Positions 7,180 through 32,428 of a DNA stretch of 37,045 nucleotides are shown piece by piece. The first letter of the stretch is position 1, and each line of letters starts with the position of its first letter. The DNA comes from Deltaproteobacteria bacterium (GTDB lineage Bacteria > Desulfobacterota > JADFVX01): contig JAOUBX010000044.1 in assembly GCA_029860075.1 (NCBI GenBank), forward strand, positions 1-37,045, written 5' to 3'. The notes under the pieces were generated by a model. That model ran no database searches, had not been told where the DNA came from, and worked only from the letters and a program-made list of their open reading frames with translations. Made by a program: the position numbers and the translations under genes.

Positions 7180-7185
7180 ATCGAT

Positions 7186-8918: not shown

Positions 8919-8936
8919 ATTATTTGAGGTGATATT

Positions 8937-9539
8937 ATGGCAAGCCAGGCAGAGCGACGTGCCAAGACACGTAACAAAATTATCAAGGCAGCAAAGAAGC
9001 TTTTTGACAAACAGGGTTTTGAATCTACCTCTGTGGACCAGATTGTCAACACTGCCAACGTTGCCAAGGGAACTTTCTACCAGTATTACGACACAAAAAT
9101 TGAAATTCTGGCCGATGTTATCCGTGATGAAGGATCGCAGCAGACCCGTGAGGCTTTGGAAAAAGCCGCTAAGGGTTCACCGGTCATTCCCATTTTGGAA
9201 GCTTATATCCAGACGCTGTGTGAGTGGTTTGAAGGGCATAGCAAGATTGCCGAGGCCTTGATTTTTTCCAGCCTCAAAACGATTGGAGATAAAGAACTTT
9301 GTGATTCACACCGTTACGGTCGCAGCTTTTTGATGGAACTCATGAAGCTGGCGCAAAAGCAAGGGGCTGTGCGTGATGACGTACCGGCGGGAGAACTGGC
9401 AAAAGTACTGGGAGGATCGCTTGCCTTTTCTGTGCTGGCATGGTGCAAGAATCCGCAGCCCCGTGCGCTTGTAGAATCGATGAATCACAGCCTGGAGATA
9501 TTTCTTCATGGCGCGAAAAAGGGGGACTTTAATGACTAA
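8937..9539 (+). CDS. TetR/AcrR-family transcriptional regulator
   Basis: The N-terminal HTH is typical of TetR (RNKIIKAAKKLFDKQGFESTSVDQIVNTANVAKGTFYQYY). Its stop overlaps the next gene's start (ATGACTAA). Confidence 0.85.
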   Translation: MASQAERRAKTRNKIIKAAKKLFDKQGFESTSVDQIVNTANVAKGTFYQYYDTKIEILADVIRDEGSQQTREALEKAAKGSPVIPILEAYIQTLCEWFEGHSKIAEALIFSSLKTIGDKELCDSHRYGRSFLMELMKLAQKQGAVRDDVPAGELAKVLGGSLAFSVLAWCKNPQPRALVESMNHSLEIFLHGAKKGDFND

Positions 9540-12168: not shown

Positions 12169-13421
12169 AGTTTCTTAAATACATATCTCCAGTACTGTTT
12201 ATTTTTCCAGTTATAGTATTTATTTCCGATGCCCATGCCATTGAGCGCCGCCGTAACCAGTTTCTTGATGAGCAGGGTTATTATGTCTTTATTACGCCTT
12301 ACAGCCTGCCCGGTATAGGAGGTGGTGCGGGTCTGGTGGGCGCCGTGTCCAATGTGGCCAACAGTTATACCGACCTCTATACCTATATCCTTGATGGTGA
12401 TCTGGAGGGAGGTGGTTTTGCGATTTCTGACGTTCATATCCTTTCTAAAAGACTCGTCTTTGATCTGACGGGTTCAAAGTTCAGAAAGATCATAATTTAA
12501 AGGTTTAACACACGCGGTATTGGTGGTGATGAAGATGACTATACCTTGCTCGAACTGGATGAAAACGATTTCCTCGGTGCCAGGCTGACAAGTATTTTTT
12601 TCGATCGTATGCTGGAATTCTATGTAATGGGCTATGACGGTAAATGGCATACATCCAAACTGCGTGATTCCCATGGGAATGTAACGCAAGACCTTAAAGA
12701 CAGTGATACTCTGGATTACGGTGTAGGTGTTGTTGGCATGCGTATCGATTACACCGATGATTACCAGAATCCCCGTGTAGGGCTTCGTTTTGATTTTAAT
12801 GCCAGAGAGATGACTAAACGGGAAAAGTATCTTCCCGATCAGTATGTAATGCAATACAGTTTGACAGGTTACATCCCTTTCAGGAGGTGGGATACGCTGG
12901 TGCTTAATTATTTTCAGGGTGATTCCGTGGTACGGTCCATAGGAGAAACAGATAGGGCAGAGGTAGAACGGATATATGGTTATAACTGCAGTACCGGCAC
13001 ACCTGCCGAGCAACAGGACTGCAATGATGTAATCGATACCATTATCGACGGTAATCGCTATGGTACGGCCGGAGGGTTGGGTGGTACGAGCCGTCTGCGC
13101 GCCTATCCCATGGACCGCTACCAGGGCGCTCATATCCGCTTTATCGGCGTGGAGTATCGTTGGAATATTACGGAGGAATCGACCCCCTTTAATATCTGGA
13201 TTGCAAAAGATATACGTACATCCTTCCAGATGGCTTTTTTTTACGAAATGGGCATGGTAGCTGATAGCAGGAGCAACCTTTACGACAAGTATCGCTCCAA
13301 TACCGGGTTAGGCTTCAGGATGGTAACGGAAGGCGGTTTTGTTATTCGCGGTGATGTTGCTACAGGCCGCGAAGGGCCAGGTGTCAGTATTATTATCGGT
13401 TATCCCTGGGAGTCATTTTAA
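12162..13421 (+). pseudogene. Outer-membrane beta-barrel protein (Omp85/surface-antigen-like C-terminus) interrupted by an in-frame TAA at 12498-12500
   Basis: ORF 12162..12500 has a signal peptide (MLKFLKYISPVLFIFPVIVFISDAHA). ORF 12546..13421 is in the same frame and has no ATG or signal peptide of its own. It has alternating amphipathic beta-strands and a C-terminal aromatic end (IIIGYPWESF). The intervening 15 codons are open. This is a single nonsense codon, or else readthrough or a sequencing error. Confidence 0.5.
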
Positions 13422-13794
13422 GTTGAAAAATTCATCTGCTCCTATTGACTCATTAGAAAATGTTGCCAAAGGTATAGCCCTGTAAAGTGGGTACGAACTT
13501 TGTGCCCACGCGGTAGAAAAAAGGGGGTGAAAAAATGGGAACAGGTTGGCTTATTCTAACAAAACTAACCCTTGCCATGTTTATCCAGAAAAGCATTTAC
13601 AAAGGTAGTCGCTTAAGGTATAAAAAATAATCAAACTTTTTGTGGAAAAAGAAATGGGGAAAGAGAAAAAAACAGAAAGCCCGGATCGGTAACGGTTTCG
13701 GGACTTTTTATGGATAAGACTGGTTGAAACAGTCGCTTTCCCTATTAATTTAACTGAGTAAAACCAATATATATTAAGAAATGAAGATTGCGAT

Positions 13795-16700
13795 ATGAAA
13801 CAAGACATGCTTCAAGCAGTAATTGAGCAGCTCGATTTTAGCAATGGACAGCTCTTTAGCACTGTAGAAGTCTCTCGTGGATCGCTTAGCCGGAAGGATT
13901 GGCTGGACAAAGGAGATTGGCTTCTTTCTGCCCAAAAAGCTGGAGTGGAGTATATCTTTTTTGTTGAGAACAACCCCGTTGCAGTTTTTGCACGGAGCAA
14001 AAAGTCAGATGAAGAGAAAATTGCAGTTTTCAATAAAATTTGGTGTTTGGCACGACCTCGCCTTCTATTTCTGGAATCAGAAGGTGAGCTTTCTGTTATA
14101 GACCTGGCACAAGCCCCGATACGGCAAGAATGGAACGTCGATAAACAAAAACTTACCGCATTAGAGATATTGACATCCGTTGAGAAGGTTGCACGTAAAT
14201 TACAAAAATATCACCGTGACAATATTGAAACAGGCAAGGTCTTTGAGCATGGACGATTTGGTGATTTAAAACATCGGGCCGATCAGGCGTTGATTGCTGA
14301 CTTGAGGACCGTCAGGGGTGAATTGATGCAGGCAGGCCTTCACGGTCCCAAAATGCAATATGCCCATGCTCTAATCGGACGATCCATATTTATTCGTTAT
14401 CTGGAAGACCGGGGCATTTTAACTGAAGAGTATTTTTCTAAAGTTGCTGGATCAAATCCGACATGGCAGACACTATTACAAAATCCTTATTCACGTGACC
14501 AAATGGATTTCTCCGGCGTTAAAGCAAAATATCCACGTGTACTTCAGGATAAGGATTTTACTTATGCATTATTCCGCATGCTCTCGATAGATTTTAATGG
14601 AGATATGTTTCCTGACATTGATGAGGAAGAAAAAAATATTGAGGGCAGGCACCTGCAACTCATACAAGAACTTTTATATGGTGATGTTGGCTCTCAGAAA
14701 AAGCTGTTTTTTTACTCCTATAAGTTCGATATCATCCCGCTCGATCTGATCAGTGCGATCTATGAGGAATTTTACCATGCATCAGCAAGTGCGAACGAAA
14801 AAAAGAGCAAGGCACGGCAAGACGGAGCTTACTACACCCCGCCGGCACTGGCCGAATTCGTTCTGTCAAGAATACTGACTGATGAAGTGTTACAGAAAAA
14901 TCCGAGAATACTAGATCCGGCATGTGGCTCCGGGATATTTCTGGTTGAAGCATTCCGTCGAGTTGTTCGTTATCGGCTATATCAAAAGAAATCTTCTCTA
15001 CATTTCAGCGAATTGAAGGAAATACTCGGAAGGCAGATTGCAGGCATTGAGGTCAATGAAGAAGCAGCCCGAATCACCGCATTCAGCTTATACCTTGCCA
15101 TGCTGCACTATCTGGATCCACCATCCATTTTTGAACACATCCTGAATGGAGATAAACTGCCAAACCTGATTATGTCAGCGAATGAGTTAGACAATCATTA
15201 CAACAGCATCCATGTGGCTAATGCGTTTGCTCTCGACAATAAAAACGTAGGAGAAATTGATGTTGTGGTGGGCAATCCTCCATGGGGTGCGCCCAATAAT
15301 CCAAGTAAGGGTGCCAAAGATCGTCAGCGCATCATGCTGGACTGGTGCAAAAAAAGAAAATACCCCATTGGAGACAACGAACCATCCCAGGCTTTTCTTT
15401 GGCGATCGCTGGATTTCCTGAATAAAGAAGGCCGGTGCGCCTTGTTGACCTCTGCTGGGGTTCTTTTCAACCATAGTTCAACCACACAGACGTTCCGCCG
15501 AGAATGGATGAGCAGAGTTTGCATTACGGAAGTATTCAACTTCTCTCATGTGCGGAAATTCTTCTTCAAGGGAGCAGATTCTCCTTTTGTGATGATTCAT
15601 TTCAAGAATGGTGAACAAGGTAAAACTCCGGTTGAATACTGGTCCCTAAAACAGGTGGCTTCACTTAAGGAAACACAAGCAATCCTGCTGTCGAAATATG
15701 ATCGAGCTTATTTGACGGGACAAGACCTGACCGACAATAAAACATGGAAAGCTAATTGGTTCGGTAGACATGCGGATACAGTGTTTTTTCATCAGTTTCA
15801 TAATTTTAAAACATTATTAGATCACATAGATAGGAGATTCTCAGGCCAAGGGATATCACCCAATCCTCCCCAAAAAGCTACAGACGATTTGCCAAGAAAT
15901 TTATTGGTACAATCTTCATTTAGTCGTTTCAATGATTCTCTACAGTTTAAAAATTTACCCCTGCGTGTATACAGACTAGGAAAAATAGAAACATATACTG
16001 GCCCACGTTTATTAATTAAAAGAGGTATATCCGAAAAGGGGGAGACAAAAGGTACTGTTGTTGCCAGATATGAATCTAAGAATTTTTGTTTTACAAACGC
16101 AATTAATGGAATCAAATTAATCAATAATGAAGAAACACAATATTTACTTTTTCTTGGTATCTTGTGGTCATCATTCAGTAGATATTTTTATTTCAATATC
16201 TCAGCAAATTGGGGGTTGTGGCATCATGAAATTCACCTTGATGATGAATTGCTTCAACTCCCCATTCCTAGTCGTCTACGGGGAAAGGAAGCAAACCACG
16301 TTGTCTCCATCGTCAAAAAACTCCGAAACTACCAGCCTCAGGTACAGGACGTATTATATCCTGATGGTGTTCCGCAAAATGAAATCGAATTACAGCGGCG
16401 TAAATGGGAAGCGGAACTTGATGAGGCTGTCTTTGATTTGTACGGTTTTACCAAAGAACAGCAGGATTTGATCCGTGATTGCTGTGAAGTGACTCTGCCA
16501 TTCTTTTATCAGCCTTATAACAGTGTTGGCGCTATGCCAGGAGTAAAAGGCAGTGATACTTCCTGGATAAAACACTATGCTGAACGGTTTGCCCGACGCT
16601 GGCAACCTTATCTGAATCAAGACGAAATTCTGCGGGCTGACCTTCACATTGGCGCGTCCGGTAATATGGTCGCCATAGAATTTTACCCGGCAGACTTGGG

Positions 16701-16959
16701 CGATGAGTGGAATCTATCACCCAAAACAGATTCTTGGGGGCATGTTCTGGAAGAAATCAGCAAGTCATTACCACGTCCCATGGGGACATCTCAAATCCTG
16801 CTTGATGGGATCGTCCATATCGTGACAGATAACAGCATCATAGTTATAAAACGCAACGAGAAACGATTCTGGACACGAAGTCTGGCCTACGAGGATGCTG
16901 AGTCCACATTGGCCAAGCGTATGCTGGAAACAATGCCTGAAAAGAGTGGTGTTGAATAG
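13795..16959 (+). CDS. Large gamma-class N6-adenine DNA methyltransferase (Eco57I/MmeI/PglX-like architecture: N-terminal helical domain, MTase core, C-terminal TRD)
   Basis: 1054 aa with motif I ILDPACGSGIFLVEAF, motif IV VVVGNPPWG and a ~500-aa C-terminal region. No convincing D...ExK nuclease motif is seen in the N-terminal 330 aa. Confidence 0.85.
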   Translation: MKQDMLQAVIEQLDFSNGQLFSTVEVSRGSLSRKDWLDKGDWLLSAQKAGVEYIFFVENNPVAVFARSKKSDEEKIAVFNKIWCLARPRLLFLESEGELSVIDLAQAPIRQEWNVDKQKLTALEILTSVEKVARKLQKYHRDNIETGKVFEHGRFGDLKHRADQALIADLRTVRGELMQAGLHGPKMQYAHALIGRSIFIRYLEDRGILTEEYFSKVAGSNPTWQTLLQNPYSRDQMDFSGVKAKYPRVLQDKDFTYALFRMLSIDFNGDMFPDIDEEEKNIEGRHLQLIQELLYGDVGSQKKLFFYSYKFDIIPLDLISAIYEEFYHASASANEKKSKARQDGAYYTPPALAEFVLSRILTDEVLQKNPRILDPACGSGIFLVEAFRRVVRYRLYQKKSSLHFSELKEILGRQIAGIEVNEEAARITAFSLYLAMLHYLDPPSIFEHILNGDKLPNLIMSANELDNHYNSIHVANAFALDNKNVGEIDVVVGNPPWGAPNNPSKGAKDRQRIMLDWCKKRKYPIGDNEPSQAFLWRSLDFLNKEGRCALLTSAGVLFNHSSTTQTFRREWMSRVCITEVFNFSHVRKFFFKGADSPFVMIHFKNGEQGKTPVEYWSLKQVASLKETQAILLSKYDRAYLTGQDLTDNKTWKANWFGRHADTVFFHQFHNFKTLLDHIDRRFSGQGISPNPPQKATDDLPRNLLVQSSFSRFNDSLQFKNLPLRVYRLGKIETYTGPRLLIKRGISEKGETKGTVVARYESKNFCFTNAINGIKLINNEETQYLLFLGILWSSFSRYFYFNISANWGLWHHEIHLDDELLQLPIPSRLRGKEANHVVSIVKKLRNYQPQVQDVLYPDGVPQNEIELQRRKWEAELDEAVFDLYGFTKEQQDLIRDCCEVTLPFFYQPYNSVGAMPGVKGSDTSWIKHYAERFARRWQPYLNQDEILRADLHIGASGNMVAIEFYPADLGDEWNLSPKTDSWGHVLEEISKSLPRPMGTSQILLDGIVHIVTDNSIIVIKRNEKRFWTRSLAYEDAESTLAKRMLETMPEKSGVE

Positions 16960-17627
16960 TGGCCAGAAAAACACGAAAAATTGGTGGGTTTGCTCAGCTA
17001 TGGCAGCGACATGAAAATCTCTATCATTCTATATGCTGCAATGCTCTTGCACAGCTTATTATTACCGATGATCAGCGTAAGGATGAGGATGCCATATCCG
17101 AAGCGCTTTGCCCAATCTTACTACAGGTGTGCTTCAGTCATCCTGATAAACCAAAGCCCCCTGAATGGGAACTTCCGATTGCGCCCGTAAGTAGTGTTGA
17201 CCTTAAAGGAGGTAAAGTCCGAAAGCGTCCGGATTTTACCTGCACACTTGTAAACACATTTGCCGATTCCTGCGAGATGTATGCAATAGCTCTTCACATC
17301 GAATGTAAGCGGCTGGGCAAAAAAATTGGCTCATGGGACCTTAATAAAAACTACATCGAAAATGGTGTGAATCGCTTTGACTCCAGAACACATGAATACG
17401 GCAAATATGCACCATGCGGGATAATGATAGGATACATCGTAAATTCAGAAAAGAATGATGTTCTTAATGATGTCAATAGTCGTTTGCCGTCAACAATATC
17501 GGCACTTAAGTTTTCTTTCGCTACAAAAGTTGAACATTGCGATTCTTTATTCAACCGTAACTGCGTTGCTCCAAAGCAATTCAAACTGATTCATATCTGG
17601 GTAGATTTAACTGGTAACGCTCAATAA
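16959..17627 (+). CDS. Putative PD-(D/E)xK nuclease, translationally coupled to the methyltransferase (candidate restriction component)
   Basis: 222 aa. GTG start overlaps the MTase TAG (taGTG). The sequence RPDFTCTL...x...IALHIECKR gives a PD-x23-E-C-K motif. There is no other recognisable domain. Confidence 0.45.
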   Translation: MARKTRKIGGFAQLWQRHENLYHSICCNALAQLIITDDQRKDEDAISEALCPILLQVCFSHPDKPKPPEWELPIAPVSSVDLKGGKVRKRPDFTCTLVNTFADSCEMYAIALHIECKRLGKKIGSWDLNKNYIENGVNRFDSRTHEYGKYAPCGIMIGYIVNSEKNDVLNDVNSRLPSTISALKFSFATKVEHCDSLFNRNCVAPKQFKLIHIWVDLTGNAQ

Positions 17628-17828
17628 ATGAAATAAGTGTGGGGAAAAGGGGACAAAGGTTCTCTTCAAAGCATTAACGGCGCACCTCTTTAAGAAGTAC
17701 GCCGTTTTTTATGTAGTGAAAATCTATATTCATGAAGCCAGGAAAGGTATTAAGCTTTAAAACACAAAAAAAGGGTGGGCATAATGCCTACCCTCTTGTT
17801 ATTAGAAAGGTCTTTTTTTCTCTCTATC

Positions 17829-18284
17829 TTATGAGTGAACCAAATACTCCAGTTCAGAACCACTGATCTGGTGGAAGTTGAGATATTTGTAGATTCTGTC
17901 CGTTGCATCAGCGGTAATCTTCTTGGGAACGATCTCCATATATTCACTTGCTGATGGAAGACGGCCAAGCATGGCAGTAACAGCGGCAAGCTCGGCGCTA
18001 CCGAGGTAAACCTGTGTACCTGTTCCAAGCCTGTTGTTGAAGTTTCTTGTTGATGTTGAGAATACGATTGTGTTGTCGCCAACTCTTGCCTGGTTACCCA
18101 TGCAAAGTGAACAACCCGGGATCTCTGTTCTTGCACCTGCAGCGCCATAGATAGAGTAGTAACCCTCCTGCTGTAGCGTTTTCTCATCCATTTTTGTTGG
18201 AGGACAAATCCACAGTTTTGTTGGAACCTGACCTTCACCTTGCAGTACTTCACCAAGCGCTCTGAAGAGACCGATATTTGTCAT
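17829..18284 (-). pseudogene. Orphan 3' fragment of aconitase B (last 151 codons) with its own copy of the terminator hairpin
   Basis: The protein is 148/151 identical to the C-terminus of the 853-aa AcnB at 20560..23121. Nucleotide identity is only ~90% (rough by-eye estimate), with mostly synonymous changes. The repeat spans 17757..18316, including a degenerate copy of the acnB terminator (gggtgggcataatgcctaccc). Confidence 0.85.
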
Positions 18285-18452
18285 ACAGCTTCCGACAAAT
18301 ACTTCATCGATCTTTTAGTTGACAGCTTTCTTTATCACTCTTATTATACGATTAGAATGAATGATGAATACGGTGCTTTAAGTAAAGCTTATTTTAAAGC
18401 ATAAACATTCATTTCCCATCTTTCACTTTAATCTGAATAAAAGGAGTGCCCT

Positions 18453-19163
18453 GTGGATAAAATTCTTCTCGTTGATGATTCCGAATTTTTTATTGTTTTA
18501 ATCAAGTCACTTCTCGATGCCAGAGGCTGTAATGTTCTGACGGCTACTGACCCGAAAGAAGCACTTCAAATTCTCAAACAAGAAAAACCCAAGCTCATAC
18601 TTCTTGATCAGTACATGCCTGACATGACAGGGGATGAATTTTGCAGGAAAGTAAAAGAGAATGAGGACACGAAAGATATTGCCGTAATTATGCTGACTGT
18701 TTCCGATAAAGAGGAAGACAGAGAAAAATGTTTTGCCGCAGGTTGTGATGAATTCATTACCAAGCCAATATGCAAGGAAGAGTTCCTTGCTGTCATATCA
18801 AAGTACATACAAATCTATGAGCGAAAACAGGAGAGATATCCCATCTATGAAAGCATGAAATATCACCTTAATGGTGTTGAATATTCAGGTCATGTTCACT
18901 CTGTCAGTCAAAGAGGCTGTTTTATCATGGGAGAGGAAATGCTTAGCGAGGATACTCTCATTACATTAAAGTTTCCCATCTCCAAAGTGCACGACGAGGT
19001 CAATGTGATAGGAAAAGTGGTCTGGAATTTCGATTCAAAAAAAGAGAAATTTCCGCACATCCCGGAATCAGGTCATGGTATGGGCATCCAATTCATTGAA
19101 ATCAGTGAAGAGGATGAAGAGGCCATTGCTAAATATATAGCCCTCGGTGATTTTGTAGTATAA
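18453..19163 (+). CDS. Response regulator with CheY-like receiver and C-terminal PilZ (c-di-GMP-binding-like) domain
   Basis: Receiver motifs are present (LLVDDSEF..., phospho-accepting D in LILLDQYMPDMTG, and K in FITKP). The C-terminal part has PilZ-like VSQRGCFI and GMGIQF motifs. GTG start with an AAGGAG RBS. Confidence 0.75.
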   Translation: MDKILLVDDSEFFIVLIKSLLDARGCNVLTATDPKEALQILKQEKPKLILLDQYMPDMTGDEFCRKVKENEDTKDIAVIMLTVSDKEEDREKCFAAGCDEFITKPICKEEFLAVISKYIQIYERKQERYPIYESMKYHLNGVEYSGHVHSVSQRGCFIMGEEMLSEDTLITLKFPISKVHDEVNVIGKVVWNFDSKKEKFPHIPESGHGMGIQFIEISEEDEEAIAKYIALGDFVV

Positions 19164-19428
19164 ATGAGCAAGCGTAATCCGGATACAATCCCGGAAAAAA
19201 TATAAAACCCGGAATCCGCTCAGCTTAGCGCCATCCACTCTACAATAAAAAACCGTATTGATGGGTTTCGTTTCACTGCACCCATCCTTGATTTAAGCAT
19301 TTTTAAGAAGGGAAAAACTTAGGCCCGCTTAAGAATCACCGCTCCACCCTGTCCACCACTGATACAGAGGGAAGTTTTGTAGCGTGGGCATTGCCCATTT
19401 TACCGAGCTAAGTTAGATGAAAATGGTC

Positions 19429-20346
19429 CTAATGAATTAGAATAAATAGTTCGTTTAAATTTTCTTCGATAATTGAGCCATCTTCATTAATCCAATCAAT
19501 CGAATTCATCGACTCTTTCTGAAATTGTATCTCATAACTGGTTTTTTCCCACTCTTGATCTTCAAGAAAAGTGTGCAGTGAGGAGGATTGGAAATTAATG
19601 ATAATTAATCCATTTTCGTTAGATTTATATTCAGCTTTTGCCAATTTCAATTTTGCCAAGACTTCTTCTCTTTTATCCGTTTTTTCAATAGAAAGGTAAT
19701 ACTCTTTAGGTACACTAACACTGATAAGAGGTATCGCAATTAAAGAATAGATTGATGCAAAGATAATAGATCTTACTGGCCTTGGGCTTGATTCCTCTTC
19801 TTTACTCCCTATTTGATTGTTTGTGATAACAACCGTTCCTGCTATAAAGTCATGCAATGCTCTTTTCTTTTTGTTTAACAGTAATACCATTAATTCACTG
19901 GCATACCATAAATTCTGAATGTAAAAGAGGATATAACTGAAAAGTGTTGTGTTGGAATGTAGGAATACTGACCTGTCATCAAATGACAGGGTAAAGTAAC
20001 TTTGTAAATCGGTGAGTGAAAAAAGAGTTGTCAATAATGATATAAGAAGGATTATGCTGAAAAAAATATCAACGGAATTTCTTAGGATTGCTTCTTTAAA
20101 GGATATTTTACTTCCATCCAATTTCGTTATGCGAATTCTTGCTATTAATTTTCCGGGAGATATTCCATATTTTGCATTAAGAACAACTATAAAAATAGAA
20201 AATGAAAGATAAGTTACAGTTAATATTGAAACTTCTAGAGGAATTGATGGCTGCTCAAATGCCACTATGATTTTATAAAGAATTACAACAAATGAGACAT
20301 CAATTAAAACTGCAAGGAGTCTTCTCCAAAATCCCGCATAAATCAT
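19429..20346 (-). CDS. RDD-family membrane protein with a C-terminal extracytoplasmic domain
   Basis: The N-terminus (YAGFWRRLLAVLIDVSFVVILY) is typical of an RDD domain, with several TM helices and a C-terminal soluble domain. Confidence 0.65.
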   Translation of the reverse strand: MIYAGFWRRLLAVLIDVSFVVILYKIIVAFEQPSIPLEVSILTVTYLSFSIFIVVLNAKYGISPGKLIARIRITKLDGSKISFKEAILRNSVDIFFSIILLISLLTTLFSLTDLQSYFTLSFDDRSVFLHSNTTLFSYILFYIQNLWYASELMVLLLNKKKRALHDFIAGTVVITNNQIGSKEEESSPRPVRSIIFASIYSLIAIPLISVSVPKEYYLSIEKTDKREEVLAKLKLAKAEYKSNENGLIIINFQSSSLHTFLEDQEWEKTSYEIQFQKESMNSIDWINEDGSIIEENLNELFILIH

Positions 20347-20490
20347 GTTTAAAACCCCTTTTTAGAAATAGACTAACAGCATAAAGAATGAGAATAGACT
20401 AAATCACAATTAAGAAAAGATTGCAATATTTAGGGTGGAAAAGTTTTTTACTTTTTAAAGGGAAGAAGAGATTTAGAGCAAGAGGTAGTG

Positions 20491-20524
20491 AAATAAAAAA
20501 AGGGTGGGCATTTAATGCCCACCC
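20491..20524 (-). terminator. Rho-independent terminator of acnB
   Basis: Perfect hairpin gggtgggcat-tta-atgcccaccc at 20502-20524, followed on the minus strand by a U-tract (the + strand A-run at 20491-20501). It lies 36 nt downstream of the acnB stop. Confidence 0.8.
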
Positions 20525-20559
20525 TCTGTTTAATAGAAAGGTCTGTTTTTCTCTCTTTC

Positions 20560-23121
20560 TTAGTGAACCAGGAATTCCAGTTCAGAACCACTGATTTGGT
20601 GGAAGTTGAGATATTTGTAGATTCTATCCGTTGCATCGGCAGTAATTTTCTTGGGAACTATCTCCATGTACTCACTTGCTGATGGGAGACGACCCAGCAT
20701 GGCAGTAACAGCAGCAAGCTCGGCACTACCGAGGTAAACCTGAGCACCTGTTCCAAGTCTGTTGTTGAAGTTTCTTGTCGATGTTGAGAATACGATTGTG
20801 TTGTCACCAACTCTTGCCTGGTTACCCATGCAAAGTGAACAACCCGGGATTTCTGTTCTTGCACCTGCAGCACCATAGATGGAGTAGTAACCCTCTTGCT
20901 GAAGTGTTTTCTCATCCATTTTTGTTGGAGGACAAATCCACAGCTTTGTTGGAACCTGACCTTCACCTTGCAGTACTTCACCAAGCGCTCTGAAGAGACC
21001 GATATTTGTCATACAGCTTCCAACAAATACTTCGTCGATCTTTTCATTTGGTCTCTTGTCATCAGCTAAAATTTCAGTCAGTGTAGCAACATCATCAGGA
21101 TCATTAGGGCAACAGAGAATAGGCTCTGTGATCTCGTTAAGATCGATCTCTATGACAGCTGCATATTCTGCATCAGAATCAGCTTCAAGAAGTTCAGGAT
21201 TTGCGATCCACTCTTTCATCTTATCAGCTCTTCTCTGAAGCGTGTTGGTATCTTCATAGCCTTCAGCAACCATCTGCTCGATAAGTTTGATGTTTGATTC
21301 AAGAAATTCGGTGACAGGCTCTTTATTGAGCTTAACGGTACAGGCGGCAGCACTTCTTTCAGCCGATGCATCAGAAAGTTCAAAAGCCTGCTCACATTTA
21401 AGATCTTCAAGACCTTCGATTTCCATAACACGTCCGGCGAAGATGTTTTTCTTACCCTTTTTTTCTACCGTAAGATGGCCATCCTGGATAGCCTTATAAG
21501 GAATGGCGTTTACAAGGTCTCTAAGGGTGATACCGGGCTGCATTTCTCCTTTGAACCTGACCAGTACCGATTCAGGCATATTGAGAGGCATGCTGCCTGT
21601 AACACCGGCAAATGCTACAAGGCCGGAACCTGCGGGAAATGAGATGCCGATTGGGAATCTTGTATGGCTGTCACCACCGGTACCGACTGTATCAGGAAGA
21701 CAGAACCTGTTGAGCCATGAGTGGATAACACCGTCACCGGGTCTGAGGATAACACCGCTTCTTGAAGTGATAAACTCAGGAAGTGTATGCTGAAGTTTGA
21801 TATCAGCCGGCTTTGGATAGGCTGCCGTGTGACAGAAGGACTGTAAAACAAAATCGGAACCAAAACCGAGAGCGGCAAGTTCCTTGATTTCGTCTCTTGT
21901 CATTGGTCCCGTTGTATCCTGGGAGCCTACCGTTGCAGCGACAGGCTCAACATACATACCCGGTCTTACACCTGCCATACCGCAAGCTTTACCAACCATT
22001 TTCTGTGCCAGAGTATAGCCTTTGCCCGTATCGGCAGGTTGCTCAGGCTGAGCGAACATATCAGATGCGCCCAGGCCCAGCGCTTCTCTTGCTTTGGCAG
22101 TGAGGCCTTTTCCGATGATAAGAGGAATTCTTCCTCCCGCTCTCATCTCGTCAGCCAATGTATTTGGATTGAGTTTAAATGTGTTTACGGTGGAGCCATC
22201 TTTTTCTATGACACCTTCGTAAGGCTTTACAGTGATCACATCACCCGTTTCGAGGTTGGCAACATCAGTCTCGATGGGGAGGCAGCCTGAATCTTCGGCT
22301 GTATTAAAGAAGATAGGAGCGATGGTGTTACCGATAACAATGCCGCCTGTTCTTTTGTTAGGAACACCGGGGATATCTCTACCCATGTGCCACTGAACAG
22401 AGTTGATACCGGATTTTCTACTTGAACCGGTACCTACAACGTCACCAACATAGGCCAGAGGATGACCTTTAGCTTTCAGCTCTTTCATTGTATCGAGAGG
22501 GTTTTCCATCCTTGCAACAAGCATGGAGTTGGCATGTAGCGGGATGTCACTTCTGGTGAAGGCTTCGCTTGCCGGTGAAAGGTCATCTGTGTTTGTCTCA
22601 CCGGGAATCTTGTAGACCGTTACGGTGATCTCTTTTTCCAGTTCAGGCCTGTTTGTAAACCACTCAGCATTGGCCCAGGACTCGATAACCTCTTTAGCCT
22701 TTGCATTGGATGAAGAAAGTTCTACAACGTCATTGAAGGCATCGTAGACCAAAAGGGTGTTTTTAAGTTTATCAGCAGCAAGGTCAGCTACTTCATCAAC
22801 GGTCAGTGCATCGATAAGAGGTTTAACATTGTATCCACCAAGCATCTGGCCCAGTGCATTTACCGCTTCTTCTTTTGATATTGCAGTTGATATATTTCCC
22901 TGTACTACGTCATTTAAAAATGCCGCTTTTACATAGGCCGAGTCATCAACGCCGGGAGCAACGCGTGTAAATAAGAGTTCTTTTAATTTTTCAGTTTCGC
23001 TGTCATTTGCTTTTATCAGTTCGATGACTTCTGCTGTCTGCTCAGGGGTGAGTGGAAGAGGTGGTACATTGAGTGCTGCTCTTTCTTGTACATGTTGATC
23101 ATAGTTTTTTAAAAAATCCAT
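20560..23121 (-). CDS. acnB: Aconitate hydratase B (bifunctional aconitase 2 / 2-methylisocitrate dehydratase)
   Basis: 853 aa, collinear with AcnB (N-terminal HEAT-like region, swivel domain and aconitase catalytic domains, with Cys ligands in the SCMTNIG / GCSLCMGNQ region). Confidence 0.95.
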
Positions 23122-23320
23122 TTTTTTCTCTCCATAAATTAATTAATGAATTGTGAGTCGGCTTCATTTTTTAAAGTTAGAGTTTTTACCATAAAATAGA
23201 GATGATTTCAATTGTTTTCGGTGGTTTTAAGCCTTATTTTGGTCAGTTTATAAAGGAAAGGCGATAAATGGGGTATGGTTGAAAAAACTACTTGAAGTCA
23301 TTGTGACCCCACCCTCTCCC

Positions 23321-23944
23321 TCAGGGAGAGGGGATATGATCAGTAATTAATTTCTTTACTATCTCCTCAACTTCCTCTCTTGTCCACTCCCTTACTTCAA
23401 AAGGTCCTGCAATTTTTACCAGATCGCCTACGGTTTGAAACTGCTTTGGGAATTCCTTTTTAAAGGGGACTGTCAGAAGCAGTAAAAAGAAGAAGAGAAA
23501 AACCGAATAAAAGGCGGCCAATTCGAAGTGTTTGTCAGTACCAAGATAGACAGCGGGGAAGACGACAAAAGGCATGGCCAGGTAAATTGCGACCTTGAGC
23601 CATGTGGGCCGGTCAATGGGTTTATAGACCTTTTTACGTGAAGATATGGAGGAGAAGAGAATGGCCCAGTTCTTCTTCCGGTTTTTCCTGCCGAAGATGC
23701 TTTCGAAGCGAGTGTCAAAACGGATTTGATCCCGTGAAAGGCCGAAGTTTTTCATGAGTGATTTTCTGACCGTATAGAAGCCGTGATCGGGATGGCTCAT
23801 TTCATCTGTCCAGTTGTTGAGTTTGGAACGAATAAGCTCTGCCAACATGTCTGGTGAACTGTGCTCAGCCACTTCCTCTTGGGAAAGGGCAATTTGAAAT
23901 TTATCTTCAAGGGCTGATATGAATTTGGGATTAGTCGGTAGCAT
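23321..23944 (-). CDS. Hypothetical membrane protein (2 predicted TM helices)
   Basis: 207-aa ORF with hydrophobic segments (WLKVAIYLAMPFVVFPAVYLG; FYSVFLFFFLLLLTVPF) and no recognisable family. The stop codon sits in the loop of the perfect hairpin ccctctccc-tca-gggagaggg at 23312-23332. Confidence 0.4.
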   Translation of the reverse strand: MLPTNPKFISALEDKFQIALSQEEVAEHSSPDMLAELIRSKLNNWTDEMSHPDHGFYTVRKSLMKNFGLSRDQIRFDTRFESIFGRKNRKKNWAILFSSISSRKKVYKPIDRPTWLKVAIYLAMPFVVFPAVYLGTDKHFELAAFYSVFLFFFLLLLTVPFKKEFPKQFQTVGDLVKIAGPFEVREWTREEVEEIVKKLITDHIPSP

Positions 23945-24122
23945 GATTTTTTGATTGAGATTTTTTAAAGGGAAAGTATACAGGGAAATATTAAAAGGGG
24001 TAAAGGGGTTTTGTTTTGAATGTGTAATTATGTTTTTTTGACCACCCCTTTATACCCTCAGGGGGCATAAATCCATAAAATAGGAAGGGAGAACAGTTCC
24101 GGAGGCCAGGAGGGGTGTTTTA

Positions 24123-25631
24123 TTAAAGTACCGGCTCCATAGGCAGCAGCTTCAAGAAGCCAACTTTCATCCTTTTAAAAATGGACGATCTGGAATCGGC
24201 ATGTTTTACATGGGCCGCCCAGCTGTTTTGTCGCGACATATCCCTTTCGATGTTCTCTTCTACCTGCCTGGCAAGGGAAGGATTGTTTATTAACACACCC
24301 ACTTCTGTATTTAGATTGACTGACCGTGGATCTAGGTTGAAGGTGCCTATATAAAGTGTTTCGCTATCGATGATAAGCGTCTTGGCATGGATTGCAAAGA
24401 TGGGCGGTTCTTTTTCCATCTCCTTATAACGGTCGATAAGCTCCTTCATTACCTCGGGCTGAGGTTTGTATTCGTAAATCTCTATGCCGGCCTTTACAAG
24501 CTTTTTTCGCTTTTTGCTGTATCCGCTGAATGCGAGAATGTTGTCTGTGGAAAGCAGGGAATTGGTGTTGATGCGTACCCTAACGCCTTTCTTTATTAGC
24601 TCTTTAAATAACTCTATTCCCTCGTCGGGCATAACGAGATAGGGCGACTGGATGGTAATGCTCTTTTTTGCTTTTTTTAATTCCTCCACGATGGCCGTCG
24701 TCGTTTTGCCACCACCTTTCAGGCCTTCCTTCCCTTCGTTTTTGCCGGGCAGGTCGCTTATAAACCGCATGTCATCCCAGGTGAGGTTCCGGACCAGTTT
24801 GTCAAACCTTTGAGGTAAATTTTCAAGGGCCTGACGTACATTAGGTGCAAAGTTAGCGCTATCTTTTGCATAGTCATGGAGCTCCTTATATTTGGCCTGG
24901 ATAGTTTTTTTCTTTAAACCCTTCTCCGGATCGCCTATCAACTTTTCTACCGGCACAGAAAGTTTGCTCTTCCAGAAGCGCTCAAAGCTGCTCTCCATAT
25001 CTTCCGCCACAGGGCCGAAGAGGAGGATGTCCCGATCCCTGAAATTATATTCCTGGTCATAATCGTAATATTCATCGGCCATGTTACGGCCGCCGGTAAT
25101 AGCAATAAGGTTGTCGACAATGACGGTCTTGTCATGCATGCGCTGGTTGGATGCCCGAAAATCGCTGAAGAGATTGAAGATGCGTTTGATCTTTGACGTG
25201 CCTACCTTATGTTTTGGATTGTAAATGCGGATATTGACATTAGGGTGCGCCGCCAAAGCCAGCAGGGTTTCGTCGTCGGCATCGACGAGAAGGTCATCGA
25301 CGATAACTCGAATACTGACACCCCTCTCGGCAGCAGTCAACAGCGCTTCCGTCGCCAATATGCCGATATTATCACTGCTCCAGATAAAGTACTGTACATC
25401 AATGGATTTCTCTGCATTCCCAGCCAGCCATGCCCGCGCCATGAGTGATTCCTCCCCCTTTTCAAGAACATAAGCAGCACTTTTGCCTTCATAAGCTGCC
25501 AGAAGTTGTCTCAGGTTGTCCAGGTGTTTTCCTTCAGCCCATGCGGGGCAAGTGTTCATGAGAAATGAGAGAAGGAGGAGAGTGATAAGAGTGAAATTCT
25601 TTCCTGAAATTTTGGAATAACGGGTTTTCAT
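24123..25631 (-). CDS. Phospholipase D-family protein (two HKD motifs; cardiolipin-synthase/PLD-like), secreted or lipid-anchored
   Basis: 502 aa with a signal peptide and HKD motifs HDKTVIVD and HAKTLIIDSETLYIGTFNLDPRS. Confidence 0.8.
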   Translation of the reverse strand: MKTRYSKISGKNFTLITLLLLSFLMNTCPAWAEGKHLDNLRQLLAAYEGKSAAYVLEKGEESLMARAWLAGNAEKSIDVQYFIWSSDNIGILATEALLTAAERGVSIRVIVDDLLVDADDETLLALAAHPNVNIRIYNPKHKVGTSKIKRIFNLFSDFRASNQRMHDKTVIVDNLIAITGGRNMADEYYDYDQEYNFRDRDILLFGPVAEDMESSFERFWKSKLSVPVEKLIGDPEKGLKKKTIQAKYKELHDYAKDSANFAPNVRQALENLPQRFDKLVRNLTWDDMRFISDLPGKNEGKEGLKGGGKTTTAIVEELKKAKKSITIQSPYLVMPDEGIELFKELIKKGVRVRINTNSLLSTDNILAFSGYSKKRKKLVKAGIEIYEYKPQPEVMKELIDRYKEMEKEPPIFAIHAKTLIIDSETLYIGTFNLDPRSVNLNTEVGVLINNPSLARQVEENIERDMSRQNSWAAHVKHADSRSSIFKRMKVGFLKLLPMEPVL

Positions 25632-26197
25632 TTCAGGTAGAGTTTACCTGTAATCAGGAAATATGTAAAGTTGAAGGAAGGCTGCAGATTAAAGGCTTAA
25701 TTTATAAATTGGCTCAGATCAGTATTATGTTCATTTATATTGAAATATATTTCTTTTAACCTTACCCCTAAAGCAACAAAATACAGGGAATAAAAAAACT
25801 TTTCTTTCTATGCTTGACAAAGAATTAAAAATAGATTATCTTTTTTTAAAACGTAATCGAAGCTTAATCCACACTGGATCTATAAACATATCAAACAGCT
25901 CAAGGGGGAATTCCCCTTCTCACTATTTCGAAATCGTACCTTAAAAAGAAGCCATTCAGATATTAATCATTCAAAAAAATAGGACTCTTAACTGCTTGCA
26001 TCTCAAATCCGGATCTTCTTGCATTGAATATATCTGAAAATTCAGCTTTATAATAAAATAAACATCAATTATTTTAGGTTTTGCCCTCGCTGGTTTTGTA
26101 GTGGCATCCTTTCATCAGTAATGGATCAAAAGTCCCTGTTTATCAATATTCTGAATCTAAATCACAATATAAGCATTTATAGCTTGAAGGAGTTAAT

Positions 26198-27445
26198 ATG
26201 AATCTGAAGGACCTTAAAGAGGAGAAGATCGGCAATCTGATCAAGATGGCCGAAGATCTTGGCGTTGAAGGGGCGGCCGGAAAACGAAAGCAGGAACTGA
26301 TATTTGCCATTTTGCAGGCCCAAACGGAAAAGAATGGCATGATATACAGTGAAGGGGTGCTGGAGATCCTGCCTGACGGGTTCGGCTTTTTGAGGGCTCC
26401 CGATTACAACTATCTCCCCGGTCCCGATGATATTTATATCTCTCCTTCCCAGATCAGACGGTTTGGCCTTAGAACGGGTGATACCATTTCAGGTCAGATC
26501 AGACCCCCCAAAGAATCTGAAAGATATTTTGCTCTCCTTAGAGTCGAAAAGATAAACCATGATGAACCGGAAGCGGCAAGAGGGAAAATCTTATTTGACA
26601 ACCTGACGCCGCTCTACCCCGATGAGCATATCAAGCTTGAAACAGACAGAAAGAACTTGTCAGGAAGGATTCTCGATATTGTTGCGCCTATCGGAAAAGG
26701 TCAGAGGGGACTTATTGTCGCCCCCCCGAGAACGGGGAAGACCATGTTTCTCCAGAGCATTGCCAACAGCATTACCATCAATCACCCCGAGGTTTACCTC
26801 ATCGTTCTTCTCATCGATGAAAGACCGGAAGAGGTGACGGATATGATTCGCTCCGTCAAGGGCGAAGTGGTGAGCTCTACCTTCGATGAACCGCCTCAAA
26901 GGCATGTTCAGGTGGCGGACATGGTTATAGAAAAGGCGAAAAGACTGGTTGAGCATAAGAAAGACGTTGTCATTCTTCTTGACAGTATTACACGACTTGC
27001 AAGGGCGCATAATACGGTTACACCTGCCAGCGGAAAGGTTCTCTCCGGTGGTATCGATGCCAATGCCCTCCAGAAGCCGAAAAGATTTTTTGGCGCTGCA
27101 AGGAATATTGAGGAAGGCGGCAGCCTGACGATTATTGCAACGGCCCTTGTCGATACGGGAAGCAGGATGGATGAAGTCATCTTTGAAGAATTCAAAGGAA
27201 CCGGTAATATGGAGAGTCACCTTGACAGAAAGCTCGTCGAGAAGAGAATTTTCCCTGCCATTGATATTAATAAGTCAGGAACGAGGAAGGAAGAACTCCT
27301 CATTGAACAGGAAGACCTCAATAAGATCTGGATACTCAGGAAAGTGCTTCACCCTCTCAATGTTGTAGACAGCATGGAGTTTATCAGGGAAAAAATTGAA
27401 AAAACGAAGAGCAACAGAGAATTTTTCGATATTATGAACAAGTAG
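26198..27445 (+). CDS. rho: Transcription termination factor Rho
   Basis: 415 aa with an N-terminal insertion domain and cold-shock-domain-like RNA-binding domain, a RecA-type ATPase with Walker A (APPRTGKT), Q-loop and R-loop, and the canonical C-terminus. A long AT-rich 5' leader (25632-26197) is consistent with rho autoregulation. Confidence 0.97.
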
Positions 27446-27704
27446 CACTATATCCTGGATATCCCTTTCTGTCGGCTGACGGTGTAAAAGGTGTTATTCT
27501 TGACACCTGCGTACAGCCAATATAGACTGTTTTAGCCCTCGGTTTCTTTTGGAGTCAAGCTTTTGAGCCGCCTTAAATATGAAACGGGATTATAAATTCA
27601 AAGAGAAATTCATTTTATTCAGGAACCTTATCCACCGTTCATCTTCCTCTTGTTTACCTTTCTCCCGGAAACTTTCCTTCTTCCGGAGTAATCCCGGTTA
27701 AACT

Positions 27705-29921
27705 ATGTATATATCTCCCCTTAAAAAGATAAAAATTGCCGAACTGGAAGACAGGCAAAGAAGAAGGAGAGATTTTTACATCCTCATAGGGACCATTTTG
27801 ACAATGGCGGGGCTGACATTTCTTGAAACCGCGCTGTACAAGCAGGGAGGTGAACTCCCCGTTGCCAACAATATCCTCATATTTGTCATTATTAATATTA
27901 ATGTCATCCTCCTTCTTCTCATTCTTTACCTCCTTGTAAGAAACCTGGTAAAGCTATTTTTTGAACGAAAAAGCCGGATTCTCGGTGCAAAACTCAAAAC
28001 CAAACTTGTTGCCGCCTTTGTATCTTTATCGCTTATACCAACGCTTCTTCTCTTCTCTTTTTCAGTTGCCTTCATTTCAAACAGTATTGAAGATTGGTTC
28101 AGCGCTCCCGTTGAAAAGACCCTTAAGGGGGCGGAACAGATATCGAGAAGTTTTAATAATGCCAAGGCTGACGAAGCTATTTACCATGCCAATCAGATAA
28201 GCAAGAAGATCAAGGAGCGAAAGCTCATTAATCAAAACAGGCTCAACTCTCTCAGGTGGTATCTCAAGGCCAAAGTTGTTGAGTACAGGCTGGGAAGTAT
28301 TGAAGTGTTTTCACCGCATCAAAAGGTTTTGGCCGCTGCCGTTCACCCCGACCTTTCTGCCGACCTTTTCTCCTTACCCGAGTCCTCTCTTATAAAAGAT
28401 GGATTAATGGGCAAAAAAACATCCGTCATTCAGACTGTAGGCAAAGGGGATATGATAAGGGGCGTTTCTCCCATTTATTCAACATGGAAAAAAGATGATA
28501 TTGTTGCCGTCGCTGTTGCCACCTATTACATTCCTTACAGGCTTGTTGCCAAAATGACCGATATCAGCAACTCCTACAAGGAGTACAGGCAGCTTAAAAT
28601 GGTCAAGTATCCCGTTAAAATGAATTATCTCATGACGCTGCTTATGGTGACGCTTGTCATTATTTTTACGGCAATCTGGTTCGGCCTTTACCTTGCAAAG
28701 GGGATTACCGTGCCTATTCAGGAACTGGCAGAAGGAACCAATGAGGTTGCCAACGGCAATCTTGACTTTAAGATCGACCTTGAGTCAGGCGATGAGGTGG
28801 GCACACTGGTGAGTTCTTTTAACAAGATGACGGAAGATATCAAAGTGAGCAAAAGGAGGCTCGAAAAGAGTAACCTCGACCTGGAAAACAGACGCCGGTA
28901 TATCGAGATCATTTTAAGAAGTGTGACGGCGGGCGTTATCTCTGTGGACAAGCTGGGTAAAATCAGTACCATTAACAGGTCTGCCGAAAAAATGGTTGGT
29001 GTTAGAGGGGAGGATATTTTAAACAGGAACTACAAGAAAGTGGTCGGCAAATATTATCAGGAAATGATAAAGAGTATGGTAAAGGCCGCTTTTGCCGCCG
29101 GTGGAACGATAGAAAGGGAAACCAAGCTGACACTTAAGGGAGAGAACGTGACTCTTCTTATCAGCCTGTCCATATTACGTGATGAAAGAAATAATTACCT
29201 TGGTATGGTTCTTGTTTTCGATGATCTGACGGAACTCATTAAGGGGCAGAGGGCTGCTACCTGGAGGGAAGTTGCCCGGCGCATTGCCCATGAGATAAAA
29301 AACCCCCTTACTCCCATACAGCTTTCGGCGCAAAGATTGCAAAAACGATTTGGGGACAAGGTTGATGACGAAATGGATATTTTTGGAGAGTGCACCTCAA
29401 CCATTATCAGCCAGGTTGATGAACTGAAGGCGCTTGTTAATGAGTTTTCCAGTTTTGCCCGCCTTCCCGCAGCGAATCCCGTTGCTACTCATATAGGAGA
29501 GATCATTAAAGAGGTCCTTTCCCTCTATCGTGAAGCCCATAAGGATGTTGATTTCAGAACCTTCATGCCCGACAATATTCCGCTTCTTAATCTCGATCAG
29601 AAGCAGATCAAACGGGTTTTTATTAACCTTCTTGAAAATGCTGTCGAGGCATTGAGGTTGGAAGGGGTTATTGAAATTTCGGCACGCCATAACGAGGAAG
29701 AGAGAAAAGTGGAGATTACCGTTGCCGATAATGGCGCAGGGATTTCTCTCCACGATAAAAACAGGCTCTTTGAACCTTATTTTTCAACCAAAAAAGGGGG
29801 AACCGGTCTGGGCCTCGCCATTATTGATACGATCATGAAAGATCATAAAGCCGCTATCAGGGTGAAGGATAATGTTCCAAGGGGTACGAAGTTTATGCTA
29901 GAATTTCCTGTAATGAGTTAA
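27705..29921 (+). CDS. ntrY: Membrane sensor histidine kinase, NtrY-like (TM region, HAMP, PAS, HisKA with HEIKNPLTPI, HATPase_c)
   Basis: 738 aa with N-terminal TM helices, an H-box RIAHEIKNPL, and N/G boxes (DNGAGI, GGTGLGLAI). It lies immediately upstream of a sigma54-dependent response regulator. The symbol is by architecture and synteny only. Confidence 0.75.
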   Translation: MYISPLKKIKIAELEDRQRRRRDFYILIGTILTMAGLTFLETALYKQGGELPVANNILIFVIININVILLLLILYLLVRNLVKLFFERKSRILGAKLKTKLVAAFVSLSLIPTLLLFSFSVAFISNSIEDWFSAPVEKTLKGAEQISRSFNNAKADEAIYHANQISKKIKERKLINQNRLNSLRWYLKAKVVEYRLGSIEVFSPHQKVLAAAVHPDLSADLFSLPESSLIKDGLMGKKTSVIQTVGKGDMIRGVSPIYSTWKKDDIVAVAVATYYIPYRLVAKMTDISNSYKEYRQLKMVKYPVKMNYLMTLLMVTLVIIFTAIWFGLYLAKGITVPIQELAEGTNEVANGNLDFKIDLESGDEVGTLVSSFNKMTEDIKVSKRRLEKSNLDLENRRRYIEIILRSVTAGVISVDKLGKISTINRSAEKMVGVRGEDILNRNYKKVVGKYYQEMIKSMVKAAFAAGGTIERETKLTLKGENVTLLISLSILRDERNNYLGMVLVFDDLTELIKGQRAATWREVARRIAHEIKNPLTPIQLSAQRLQKRFGDKVDDEMDIFGECTSTIISQVDELKALVNEFSSFARLPAANPVATHIGEIIKEVLSLYREAHKDVDFRTFMPDNIPLLNLDQKQIKRVFINLLENAVEALRLEGVIEISARHNEEERKVEITVADNGAGISLHDKNRLFEPYFSTKKGGTGLGLAIIDTIMKDHKAAIRVKDNVPRGTKFMLEFPVMS

Positions 29922-29933
29922 AGGGAGAATGCA

Positions 29934-31286: not shown

Positions 31287-31287
31287 T

Positions 31288-31785: not shown

Positions 31786-32111
31786 AGAGAGTTTCTTTTG
31801 AGTCGATTTAATGCTAACCCCCTGTTTTATTTAAACAGTAGCCGCTGTTAAGGAACTGAAAATCATTCTTGACAGTGTGGAAATGATGGTATATCATCTT
31901 TTATGAGAAGATGGGCAAAATCAGAGATTTACCTGTTTTTTTAATACGATAGGCTGGCAGGTTAAGTAGTTCAGGAAGTCGGTTGTCACACTGGGATGGA
32001 AGAGAAAAACAACGGCAGGGCGCTCCTTTCCGTATGGGGGTTTCGAACCATCGTAAGTGCTCCACATGGGTCGGAAGTACCCAGAGTTTTTAGGAAAGGA
32101 GGTAAAACGCT

Positions 32112-32315: not shown

Positions 32316-32342
32316 GAACTTTTCATATTGATTTTTACTAAA

Positions 32343-32369: not shown

Positions 32370-32428
32370 ACGCCTGCATTTTTGATGCAGGCTAAAAAAG
32401 CATTCCTTAATAAACCCGTATGAGTTAA

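Follow-up and report, generated by a model that had tools for sequence, protein, structure and literature searches.

In Streptococcus thermophilus, the 3' end of fda harbors cis-mobilizable elements (CIMEs), which are remnants of integrative and conjugative elements (ICEs) that have no integrase and are flanked by attachment (att) repeats of a few tens of base pairs; related autonomous ICEs with a matching integrase are known. In Escherichia coli, the element e14 and phage 21 occupy the icd gene, which is accompanied by an icdC pseudogene, according to the sections of PMC13626634 that cite Hill et al. 1989. Homology-facilitated illegitimate recombination, in which one end of the incoming DNA is joined by homology and the other illegitimately, is known from transformation and conjugation, as described in the relevant part of PMC3240628, and from the experiments of de Vries & Wackernagel 2002 and Prudhomme et al. 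2002, as cited in parts of PMC5361080. This process has been put forward as the source of orphaned 3' regions found downstream of Rhs and type VI secretion system (T6SS) genes (PMC5361080), and the passages of the same paper that cite Jackson et al. 2009 ascribe to it the C-terminal displacement seen in Rhs, CdiA and T6SS effector loci. Here, we describe a locus in a stretch of 37,045 nt (hereafter the window) from a Deltaproteobacteria bacterium (Desulfobacterota, JADFVX01; GenBank assembly GCA_029860075.1, contig JAOUBX010000044.1), in which the 3' end of acnB is present twice around a two-gene cassette. The best reading is that this locus is a one-off scar, with no working device and no sign of an active mobile element.

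The duplicated acnB 3' end

We found that the 3' end of acnB and its terminator occur twice in direct orientation, about 2.2 kb apart, and repeat finding, pairwise alignment and BLAST are concordant on this point. The direct-repeat search returned segments 17829-18128/20557-20856 (92%) and 17760-17831/20491-20562, and the copies are 92.4% identical over about 553 nt by pairwise alignment and BLAST. One copy belongs to an intact acnB gene, whose protein is 100% identical to NCBI MDH3975248.1; the other is an orphan lying downstream of it (Table 1). The acnB homology has a sharp onset at 18316 in the orphan and 21044 in the intact gene, and ends in the terminator T-run at 17766 and 20495, respectively. 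We named the onset on the orphan side junction J1. The coding part shared in frame comprises 161 codons, from K693 to the end. The orphan reading frame has no frameshift and no internal stop, and the T at 18317 makes an in-frame TAA directly ahead of it. The orphan tail is an untranslated, non-functional relic. The terminator hairpin of the intact copy (20499..20527) has a perfect stem (-27.7 kcal/mol), and the orphan stem has one A.C mismatch (-22.5 kcal/mol), which is consistent with relaxed constraint. Ahead of the terminator, a small hairpin (GAGAGA...CCUUUCU) is predicted in the 3' untranslated region (UTR) of both copies (20535..20557 and 17804..17826, minus strand), and the relatives have similar sequence. 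An Rfam match of L20_leader to the 3' UTR and terminator of the intact copy (20490..20563; E value of 0.12, 26.5 bits against a gathering score of 58.7) was judged to be due to chance.

The two coding parts differ at 31 of 480 nt (6.5%), with 2, 1 and 28 differences at codon positions 1, 2 and 3, respectively. At the protein level, this amounts to two amino-acid substitutions and one extra terminal Ser on the orphan. The Nei-Gojobori estimates of non-synonymous (dN) and synonymous (dS) divergence between the tails are 0.0054 and 0.325 (dN/dS 0.017). This low ratio, with most changes in third positions, shows that the two tails diverged in different lineages, each as part of a working gene. Neutral evolution of the orphan over the whole divergence would be expected to give about 54 non-synonymous changes, as compared with the two observed (Poisson P = 5e-21). 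At the 95% upper bound, the orphan has been a pseudogene for about 5% of the synonymous divergence; therefore, nearly all of the divergence predates the joining of the two copies, which is a recent event when set against the divergence of the tails. A preliminary description of this DNA, made from the sequence alone, had already recognized the second 3' end with its terminator and had proposed that both copies evolved as functional coding sequence in different lineages, and the alignment and the dN/dS value agree with both statements. Its figures need revision: the predominance of synonymous changes stands, and the divergence of roughly 10% of nucleotides and three amino acids is replaced by the values above. 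The 151 codons that it gave for the shared part correspond to an ATG-started open reading frame (ORF; 17829..18284) within the orphan copy.

The surroundings of the two tails also differ. The orphan ends in ..EYLVHS, as in the relative P0002, and the intact protein ends in ..EFLVH, as in P0122 and P0125. The BLAST match of the related locus L086 reaches 17735 for the orphan copy only, and another relative, L174, has the same flank; these approximately 30 nt past the orphan terminator are common to the full-length acnB loci of both relatives. On the other side, the sequence past the terminator of the intact copy is specific to the cassette and has no match to the L086/L174 flank. The copies differ to within 8 nt of J1 at one end and into the terminator at the other. 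If the acnB tail had been duplicated locally in tandem within one genome, and the copies had then diverged or been partly converted, the repeats would likewise be direct, in the same orientation and close together. Such a history is contradicted by the dS of 0.32 accompanied by so few non-synonymous changes, by the downstream flank of the orphan, which matches the acnB loci of other lineages, and by the extent of the differences at both repeat ends. The last point also makes it unlikely that one copy of an in-situ duplication was later exchanged by allelic replacement, since a donor without the cassette offers no flanking homology. Local duplication, which the preliminary description had named as the alternative to its own proposal, is thus excluded by the substitution pattern (P about 5e-21), and we give it practically no chance. 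DNA from two related lineages, about 6.5% apart in acnB, is joined at this locus. Because the tails stem from different lineages, the duplication is the footprint of horizontally introduced DNA, not of a local duplication.

The duplicated arrangement is not an assembly artefact, since the same junctions are found in three independent assemblies. An ENA contig (L001) matches 8453..20829 of the window at 100% identity, and spans by itself the restriction-modification (R-M) genes, the orphan, both junctions, the cassette and 270 nt of the intact-type tail. A Logan contig (L002) is 100% identical over 18264..20836. A further contig (L090; ENA ERZ27296429, assembled from the sample that also gave L001) matches 20895..33944 at 99.97% identity and ties the upstream genes and the 5' part of acnB to the six intact-type single-nucleotide polymorphisms nearest 21044, and L091 is identical to the window over 21584..26799. 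One might suppose that the acnB ends of two strains were stitched together in a metagenome contig, given that contigs of the relatives and of the same strain break in or just past the repeat, and that the final 160 nt of L001 (12378..12538, corresponding to 20830..20990 of the window) show 31 differences from both window copies and run into a third acnB variant. This last piece is a contig-end chimera, and contig breaks within the repeats are expected for a genuine repeat of such identity. Against stitching, J1 and the junction between terminator and cassette are unique sequences, 100% identical in the three assemblies, and L001 and L090 provide the linkage just described. We therefore consider an artefact highly improbable, and even together with local duplication it would account for very little of the overall probability. 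In L090, which comes from another sample of the same strain, the otherwise identical acnB has a TGG to TAG change at window position 22391 (codon 244), and the gene is called as two pieces of 243 and 497 aa; the change reflects either a true nonsense allele or an error in the consensus.

Possible origins of the locus

We then investigated the cassette between the repeats. It holds a REC-PilZ response-regulator gene and an RDD-family membrane protein gene, which came in as a self-contained pair with their own predicted promoter regions. The predicted sigma-70-like promoter, a consensus match only, faces the REC-PilZ gene and starts 3 nt from J1. The base composition of the RDD gene is an outlier in the window, with a GC content of 31.5% and a third-position GC content of 0.27, as compared with 0.37-0.54 in all other genes. 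This composition was rejected as a polarity marker, since the partner lineage was a congener. Apart from the RDD protein itself, no homolog above 45% identity was found among 5.8 billion proteins. In the upstream region of the RDD gene (20370..20400), AATAGACTAA is present twice, 20 nt apart. Directly past the RDD stop, there is a tentative thiolase-like C-terminal stub of 18-26 codons, followed by a hairpin and a T-run at about 19240..19290. In a phmmer search of the PDB, seven of its nine matches are the extreme C-termini of acetyl-CoA acetyltransferases, though weak (E 0.4-1.2), and the peptide is too short to give a match in Pfam. The stub, if real, suggests earlier illegitimate joins in the history of the cassette.

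The closest acnB relatives available (L083, L084, L086 and L174, and also L085) are 86-94% identical. Along the intact gene, the nearest relative changes: L084 is nearest in the 5' part (up to 93%, at nt 1001-1300), and L086 and L174 are nearest (90-92%) from about nt 1600 to the end. The gene is a recombination mosaic, and homologous exchange between related lineages therefore acts on acnB itself. Both tails are about equally far from L086 and L174 (91-92%), and there is no step in identity at 21044 in the intact gene; therefore, the relatives cannot tell which tail is native.

In our judgment, there is about an even chance that the locus is a recombination scar produced in a single event by one homologous crossover and one illegitimate join between related lineages, which is the simplest route to diverged direct repeats with the gene left intact. 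We infer homology-facilitated illegitimate recombination with the geometry of C-terminal displacement. A linear congener fragment of about 3 kb or more, carrying part of acnB, the terminator, the RDD gene and the REC-PilZ gene, would anchor by homology inside acnB, and its other end, located 3 nt ahead of the REC-PilZ promoter, would join the resident acnB illegitimately at K693. The resident tail would then be displaced downstream unchanged, and the incoming tail would keep acnB intact. In a mirror version, the orphan, its flank and the R-M segment would be the imported part, anchored on the DUF4920 side. The imported-cassette version is slightly preferred because the imported piece is short, the anchor gene is recombinogenic and the orphan flank is of the type found at the full-length acnB loci of the relatives; these grounds are weak. 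The polarity implied by the preliminary description, with the incoming element supplying the present 3' end of the intact gene, is possible. J1 is an abrupt novel joint inside the coding sequence. Matches to inverted or terminal repeats at the cassette ends are at chance level only, arm-type repeats were not found there, and the cassette side of J1 is the predicted promoter, not an integrase gene.

The preliminary description had instead favored site-specific integration of an element that brought its own acnB 3' end. The locus would then be a decayed element of the e14/phage 21-icd type, or a CIME-like att-flanked element, with a replacement acnB 3' end and a core near K693, dependent on a tyrosine or serine recombinase; its recombination module and the greater part of its cargo would since have been lost, or the integrase would act in trans. 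Site-specific integration is one of two live options and the less supported of them; we regard it as possible but doubtful. It would explain the sharp onset of homology at J1, the near-identity of the first 98 nt beside it and the foreign base composition of the RDD gene. It would also match the icd/icdC case in its main features, as far as the relevant sections of PMC13626634 describe it: 3' ends of a tricarboxylic acid (TCA)-cycle gene as direct repeats around foreign DNA, a functional gene and almost exclusively synonymous differences. The repeat next to J1 begins with 10 identical nt, followed by 2 mismatches within 22 nt and then a 77-nt perfect block; this near-identity fits a recombination core, and also fits plain homology. 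On the other hand, Pfam scans that covered every cassette ORF of at least 80 aa and the main ORFs of the whole window revealed no recombinase of the tyrosine or serine type (gene or pseudogene), and no transposase, phage, ICE or conjugation gene, in either, and no tRNA or tmRNA is present. The preliminary description was correct that no integrase lies between the repeats, that only the REC-PilZ and RDD genes do so (the possible thiolase stub aside) and that R-M-like genes abut the orphan; it is the integration mechanism drawn from this layout that is not borne out. The RDD gene adjoins the restored acnB end and the other cassette end is a promoter. The cassette has no match, and no related element, in plasmid and phage collections. 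An att segment of 550 nt that restores a gene would be unusually long, and the possible thiolase stub inside the cassette is unexpected from a clean site-specific integration. Finally, 164 other acnB loci, examined with flanks of up to 10 kb (80 GTDB genomes, 80 JGI metagenome contigs and 4 close relatives) and most of them from distant taxa (64-80% protein identity), contain no second acnB 3' fragment. Within the sampled diversity, the acnB tail is not a recurrent attachment site.

A Campbell-type insertion offers a further route. Here, a non-replicating circle composed of the 550-nt tail, the terminator, the RDD gene and the REC-PilZ gene, with J1 already formed, would enter by a single RecA-dependent crossover in the tail homology. 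This would yield the same product geometry, that is, diverged direct repeats around the insert with no loss of resident DNA, and recombination between lineages in acnB is evident from the mosaic. An extra step is needed to make a 2.7-kb circle with an arbitrary joint, and no replication or mobilization gene was found in the cassette. We consider the circular route unlikely on balance, and the present data cannot distinguish it from the favored reading. Slightly more remote is the idea that the acnB tail serves as the attachment site of a minimal, integrase-less REC-PilZ/RDD cassette, which either an unseen recombinase would mobilize in trans or RecA would excise and insert again, in a toggling fashion, via the 550-nt gene-restoring repeat. 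If this improbable scheme were true, the cassette would be a small mobilizable module with a long, selectively maintained copy of a housekeeping gene end, and the thiolase stub would be a souvenir of an earlier target.

Several observations weigh against a scar of one homologous crossover and one illegitimate join. No resident DNA was lost at the join, which falls exactly at the start of the duplicated segment, and this is equally expected from a pre-formed att site or a circular intermediate. The first 98 nt beside J1, with only 2 differences and the perfect block, can be read as a conserved recombination core. The window is all of the genome that is visible, and an integrase acting in trans from elsewhere is conceivable. 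The survey of the 164 loci included few close relatives. The searches yielded no donor or empty-site genome above about 97% identity, which would be needed to see the polarity, where the crossover took place and whether J1 holds microhomology. Exact-protein look-ups with acnB, REC-PilZ, RDD, DUF4920 and the upstream gene of 207 aa led to the same strain alone and to no close strain with a different arrangement; the duplicated arrangement was seen elsewhere only in that strain, in three samples. Scans of GTDB genomes and JGI metagenomes with AcnB gave nothing closer than about 80% protein identity, and the shared 30-nt flank, used as a DNA pattern, had no match in metagenome contigs.

The acnB-DUF4920 interval

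The region in which the orphan lies, between acnB and a conserved DUF4920 gene, differs among the relatives. L084 is collinear with the window upstream of acnB, where its 208-aa gene matches the 207-aa gene of the window, and its DUF4920 gene (89.7% nucleotide identity) lies about 1.2 kb downstream of the acnB terminator. In L084, 8800..20490 of the window (11.7 kb) is entirely missing, so that its allele resembles an empty site for the full interval, and the gap between acnB and DUF4920 holds a fragment of HTH_Tnp_1 derived from an insertion sequence instead (12797..12955). To judge from L084, the whole 11.7-kb interval, not just the 2.2-kb cassette, is a variable hotspot, which agrees with the earlier suggestion that the variable region reaches across the R-M genes. 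The contigs of L083, L086 and L174 stop 140-250 nt past acnB, and this fits strain-level variability at that point. Past its DUF4920 gene, L084 has a 157-nt stretch (13774..13930) that matches the 3' end of the window rtcR gene (6045..6208) with 77% identity. This stretch and the HTH_Tnp_1 fragment suggest further rearrangement in the hotspot.

The interval carries several genes besides the cassette (Table 1). A TetR-family regulator gene overlaps the start of a gene for an 886-aa PPDK_N/PEP-utilizer protein, to which precomputed Pfam assigns Rph_4th (rifampicin-phosphotransferase-like); this pair lies inside the interval missing from L084. The type IIG/PglX-like methyltransferase-nuclease and its 222-aa partner are 77-78% identical to a pair in another locus, L092 (6834..10666, as compared with 13795..17627 of the window). 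The L092 pair sits in a BREX-like cluster with BrxC/PglY, PglZ, an SNF2 helicase and a second methylase, beside ParA, ArdC and HTH_17. The 222-aa protein has no Pfam family; it belongs to a widespread family tied to PglX-like genes and has an E-x-K-like 'HIECK' motif, and a homolog search found none of its homologs beside acnB. The lone type IIG pair in the window may be a fragment of a BREX-like system. Elsewhere in the window, an RNA-repair locus (167..7950) contains rtcB, rtcA, an SPFH/Band-7 gene, the sigma-54 activator gene rtcR and two adjacent RlaP (polymerase-beta-family) genes. Other genes identified by Pfam are a cardiolipin-synthase-like PLD gene, rho and ntrYX-like genes.

Table 1. 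Features of the acnB locus and of the neighboring variable region (window coordinates)
Feature	Position	Strand	Basis or remark
DUF4920 gene, conserved neighbor bounding the variable region	8216..8686	-	Pfam DUF4920
Remainder of the variable region	8800..17734	+	Pfam and PADLOC annotation
TetR-family regulator	8937..9539	+	
Rph-like PPDK_N/PEP-utilizer protein, 886 aa	9508..12168	+	
112-aa and 291-aa ORFs	within 8800..17734		
Type IIG/PglX-like methyltransferase-nuclease, R-M-like, 1054 aa	13795..16959	+	
222-aa partner of the type IIG gene	16959..17627	+	abuts the orphan acnB copy
Post-terminator flank of the orphan, about 30 nt, common to full-length acnB loci of L086 and L174	17735..17765	-	BLAST
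Repeat copy B: orphan acnB 3' end, 3' UTR and terminator	17766..18316	-	coding part 17829..18314 (161 codons and a stop)
Junction J1, where acnB homology breaks off within the coding sequence (codon K693)	18316..18317		
Near-consensus sigma-70-like promoter, predicted	18319..18347	+	TTGACA, 17-nt spacer, TATTAT; 11/12 matches
REC-PilZ response-regulator gene, 236 aa; second cargo gene	18453..19163	+	Pfam Response_reg and PilZ
Tentative thiolase C-terminal stub, ending in ..SLCISGGQGGAVILKRA and a stop	19319..19399	-	six-frame translation
RDD-family membrane protein gene, 305 aa; first cargo gene past the acnB terminator	19429..20346	-	Pfam RDD
Repeat copy A: last 161 codons of intact acnB, 3' UTR and terminator	20495..21044	-	
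Intact acnB, 853 aa, bifunctional aconitate hydratase 2	20560..23121	-	Pfam Aconitase_B_N, Aconitase_2_N and Aconitase

The locus adds a further case to a known type of recombination scar, here in a variable hotspot, and reveals no new kind of mobile element or mechanism. It provides a natural example of how a few kilobases of foreign DNA can enter beside, and partly inside, a housekeeping gene without inactivating it, by bringing their own copy of the gene end. The displaced tail serves as a built-in clock, with almost all of the divergence predating the event, and as a record of a partner from a related lineage. For annotation, the scar accounts for an orphan 151-aa 'aconitase' ORF and for the metagenome contigs of this clade that break at the acnB 3' end, and it flags the interval between acnB and DUF4920 as a variable hotspot with defense-type genes. 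The 550-nt repeats (about 93% identical, with the 77-nt perfect block) should permit RecA-dependent loss of the cassette. Such a loss is predicted to leave a chimeric, functional acnB with two residues and one terminal Ser changed, comparable to the icd-icdC chimeras on e14 loss mentioned in the sections of PMC13626634 on that element.

Comparison with known systems

Like the CIMEs, the acnB insert has no integrase and adjoins the 3' end of a metabolic gene, with direct repeats on both sides. Unlike them, it has no related autonomous element among the RDD homologs, the plasmid and phage collections and the window. The e14 locus resembles the acnB locus more closely, at least in those sections of PMC13626634 that deal with it: foreign DNA is enclosed by direct repeats that consist of a TCA-cycle gene's 3' end, one copy is a C-terminal pseudogene, the gene is functional with the alternative 3' end, the differences are mostly synonymous, and recombination between the icd copies gives a chimeric functional gene. 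According to the same sections, e14 is a cryptic prophage of 15 kb that has a site-specific recombination system of its own and excises upon SOS induction, and the site that it occupies is recurrently used in E. coli. The acnB locus, in contrast, shows no recombinase, has 2.2 kb of ordinary genes as its cargo and a repeat about three times longer, and does not recur among the 164 acnB loci.

Experimental homology-facilitated illegitimate recombination, as far as the cited parts of these studies describe it, shows microhomology where the two DNAs meet, and part of the recipient DNA is usually lost, whereas no resident DNA was lost at the acnB joint. As in those experiments, a homologous and an illegitimate end would have brought a few kilobases of foreign DNA beside the anchor gene. 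The loci of Rhs, CdiA and the T6SS effectors differ in that functionally different toxin tips are swapped together with immunity genes, and arrays are built under selection. At the acnB locus, both tails complete the same housekeeping enzyme and are functionally equivalent, the cargo has no relation to acnB and only a single displacement is seen. What the acnB locus has in common with these loci is the geometry: a conserved upstream anchor, an illegitimate join at the other end and a resident 3' end that is retained downstream as an orphan opening with a conserved stretch.

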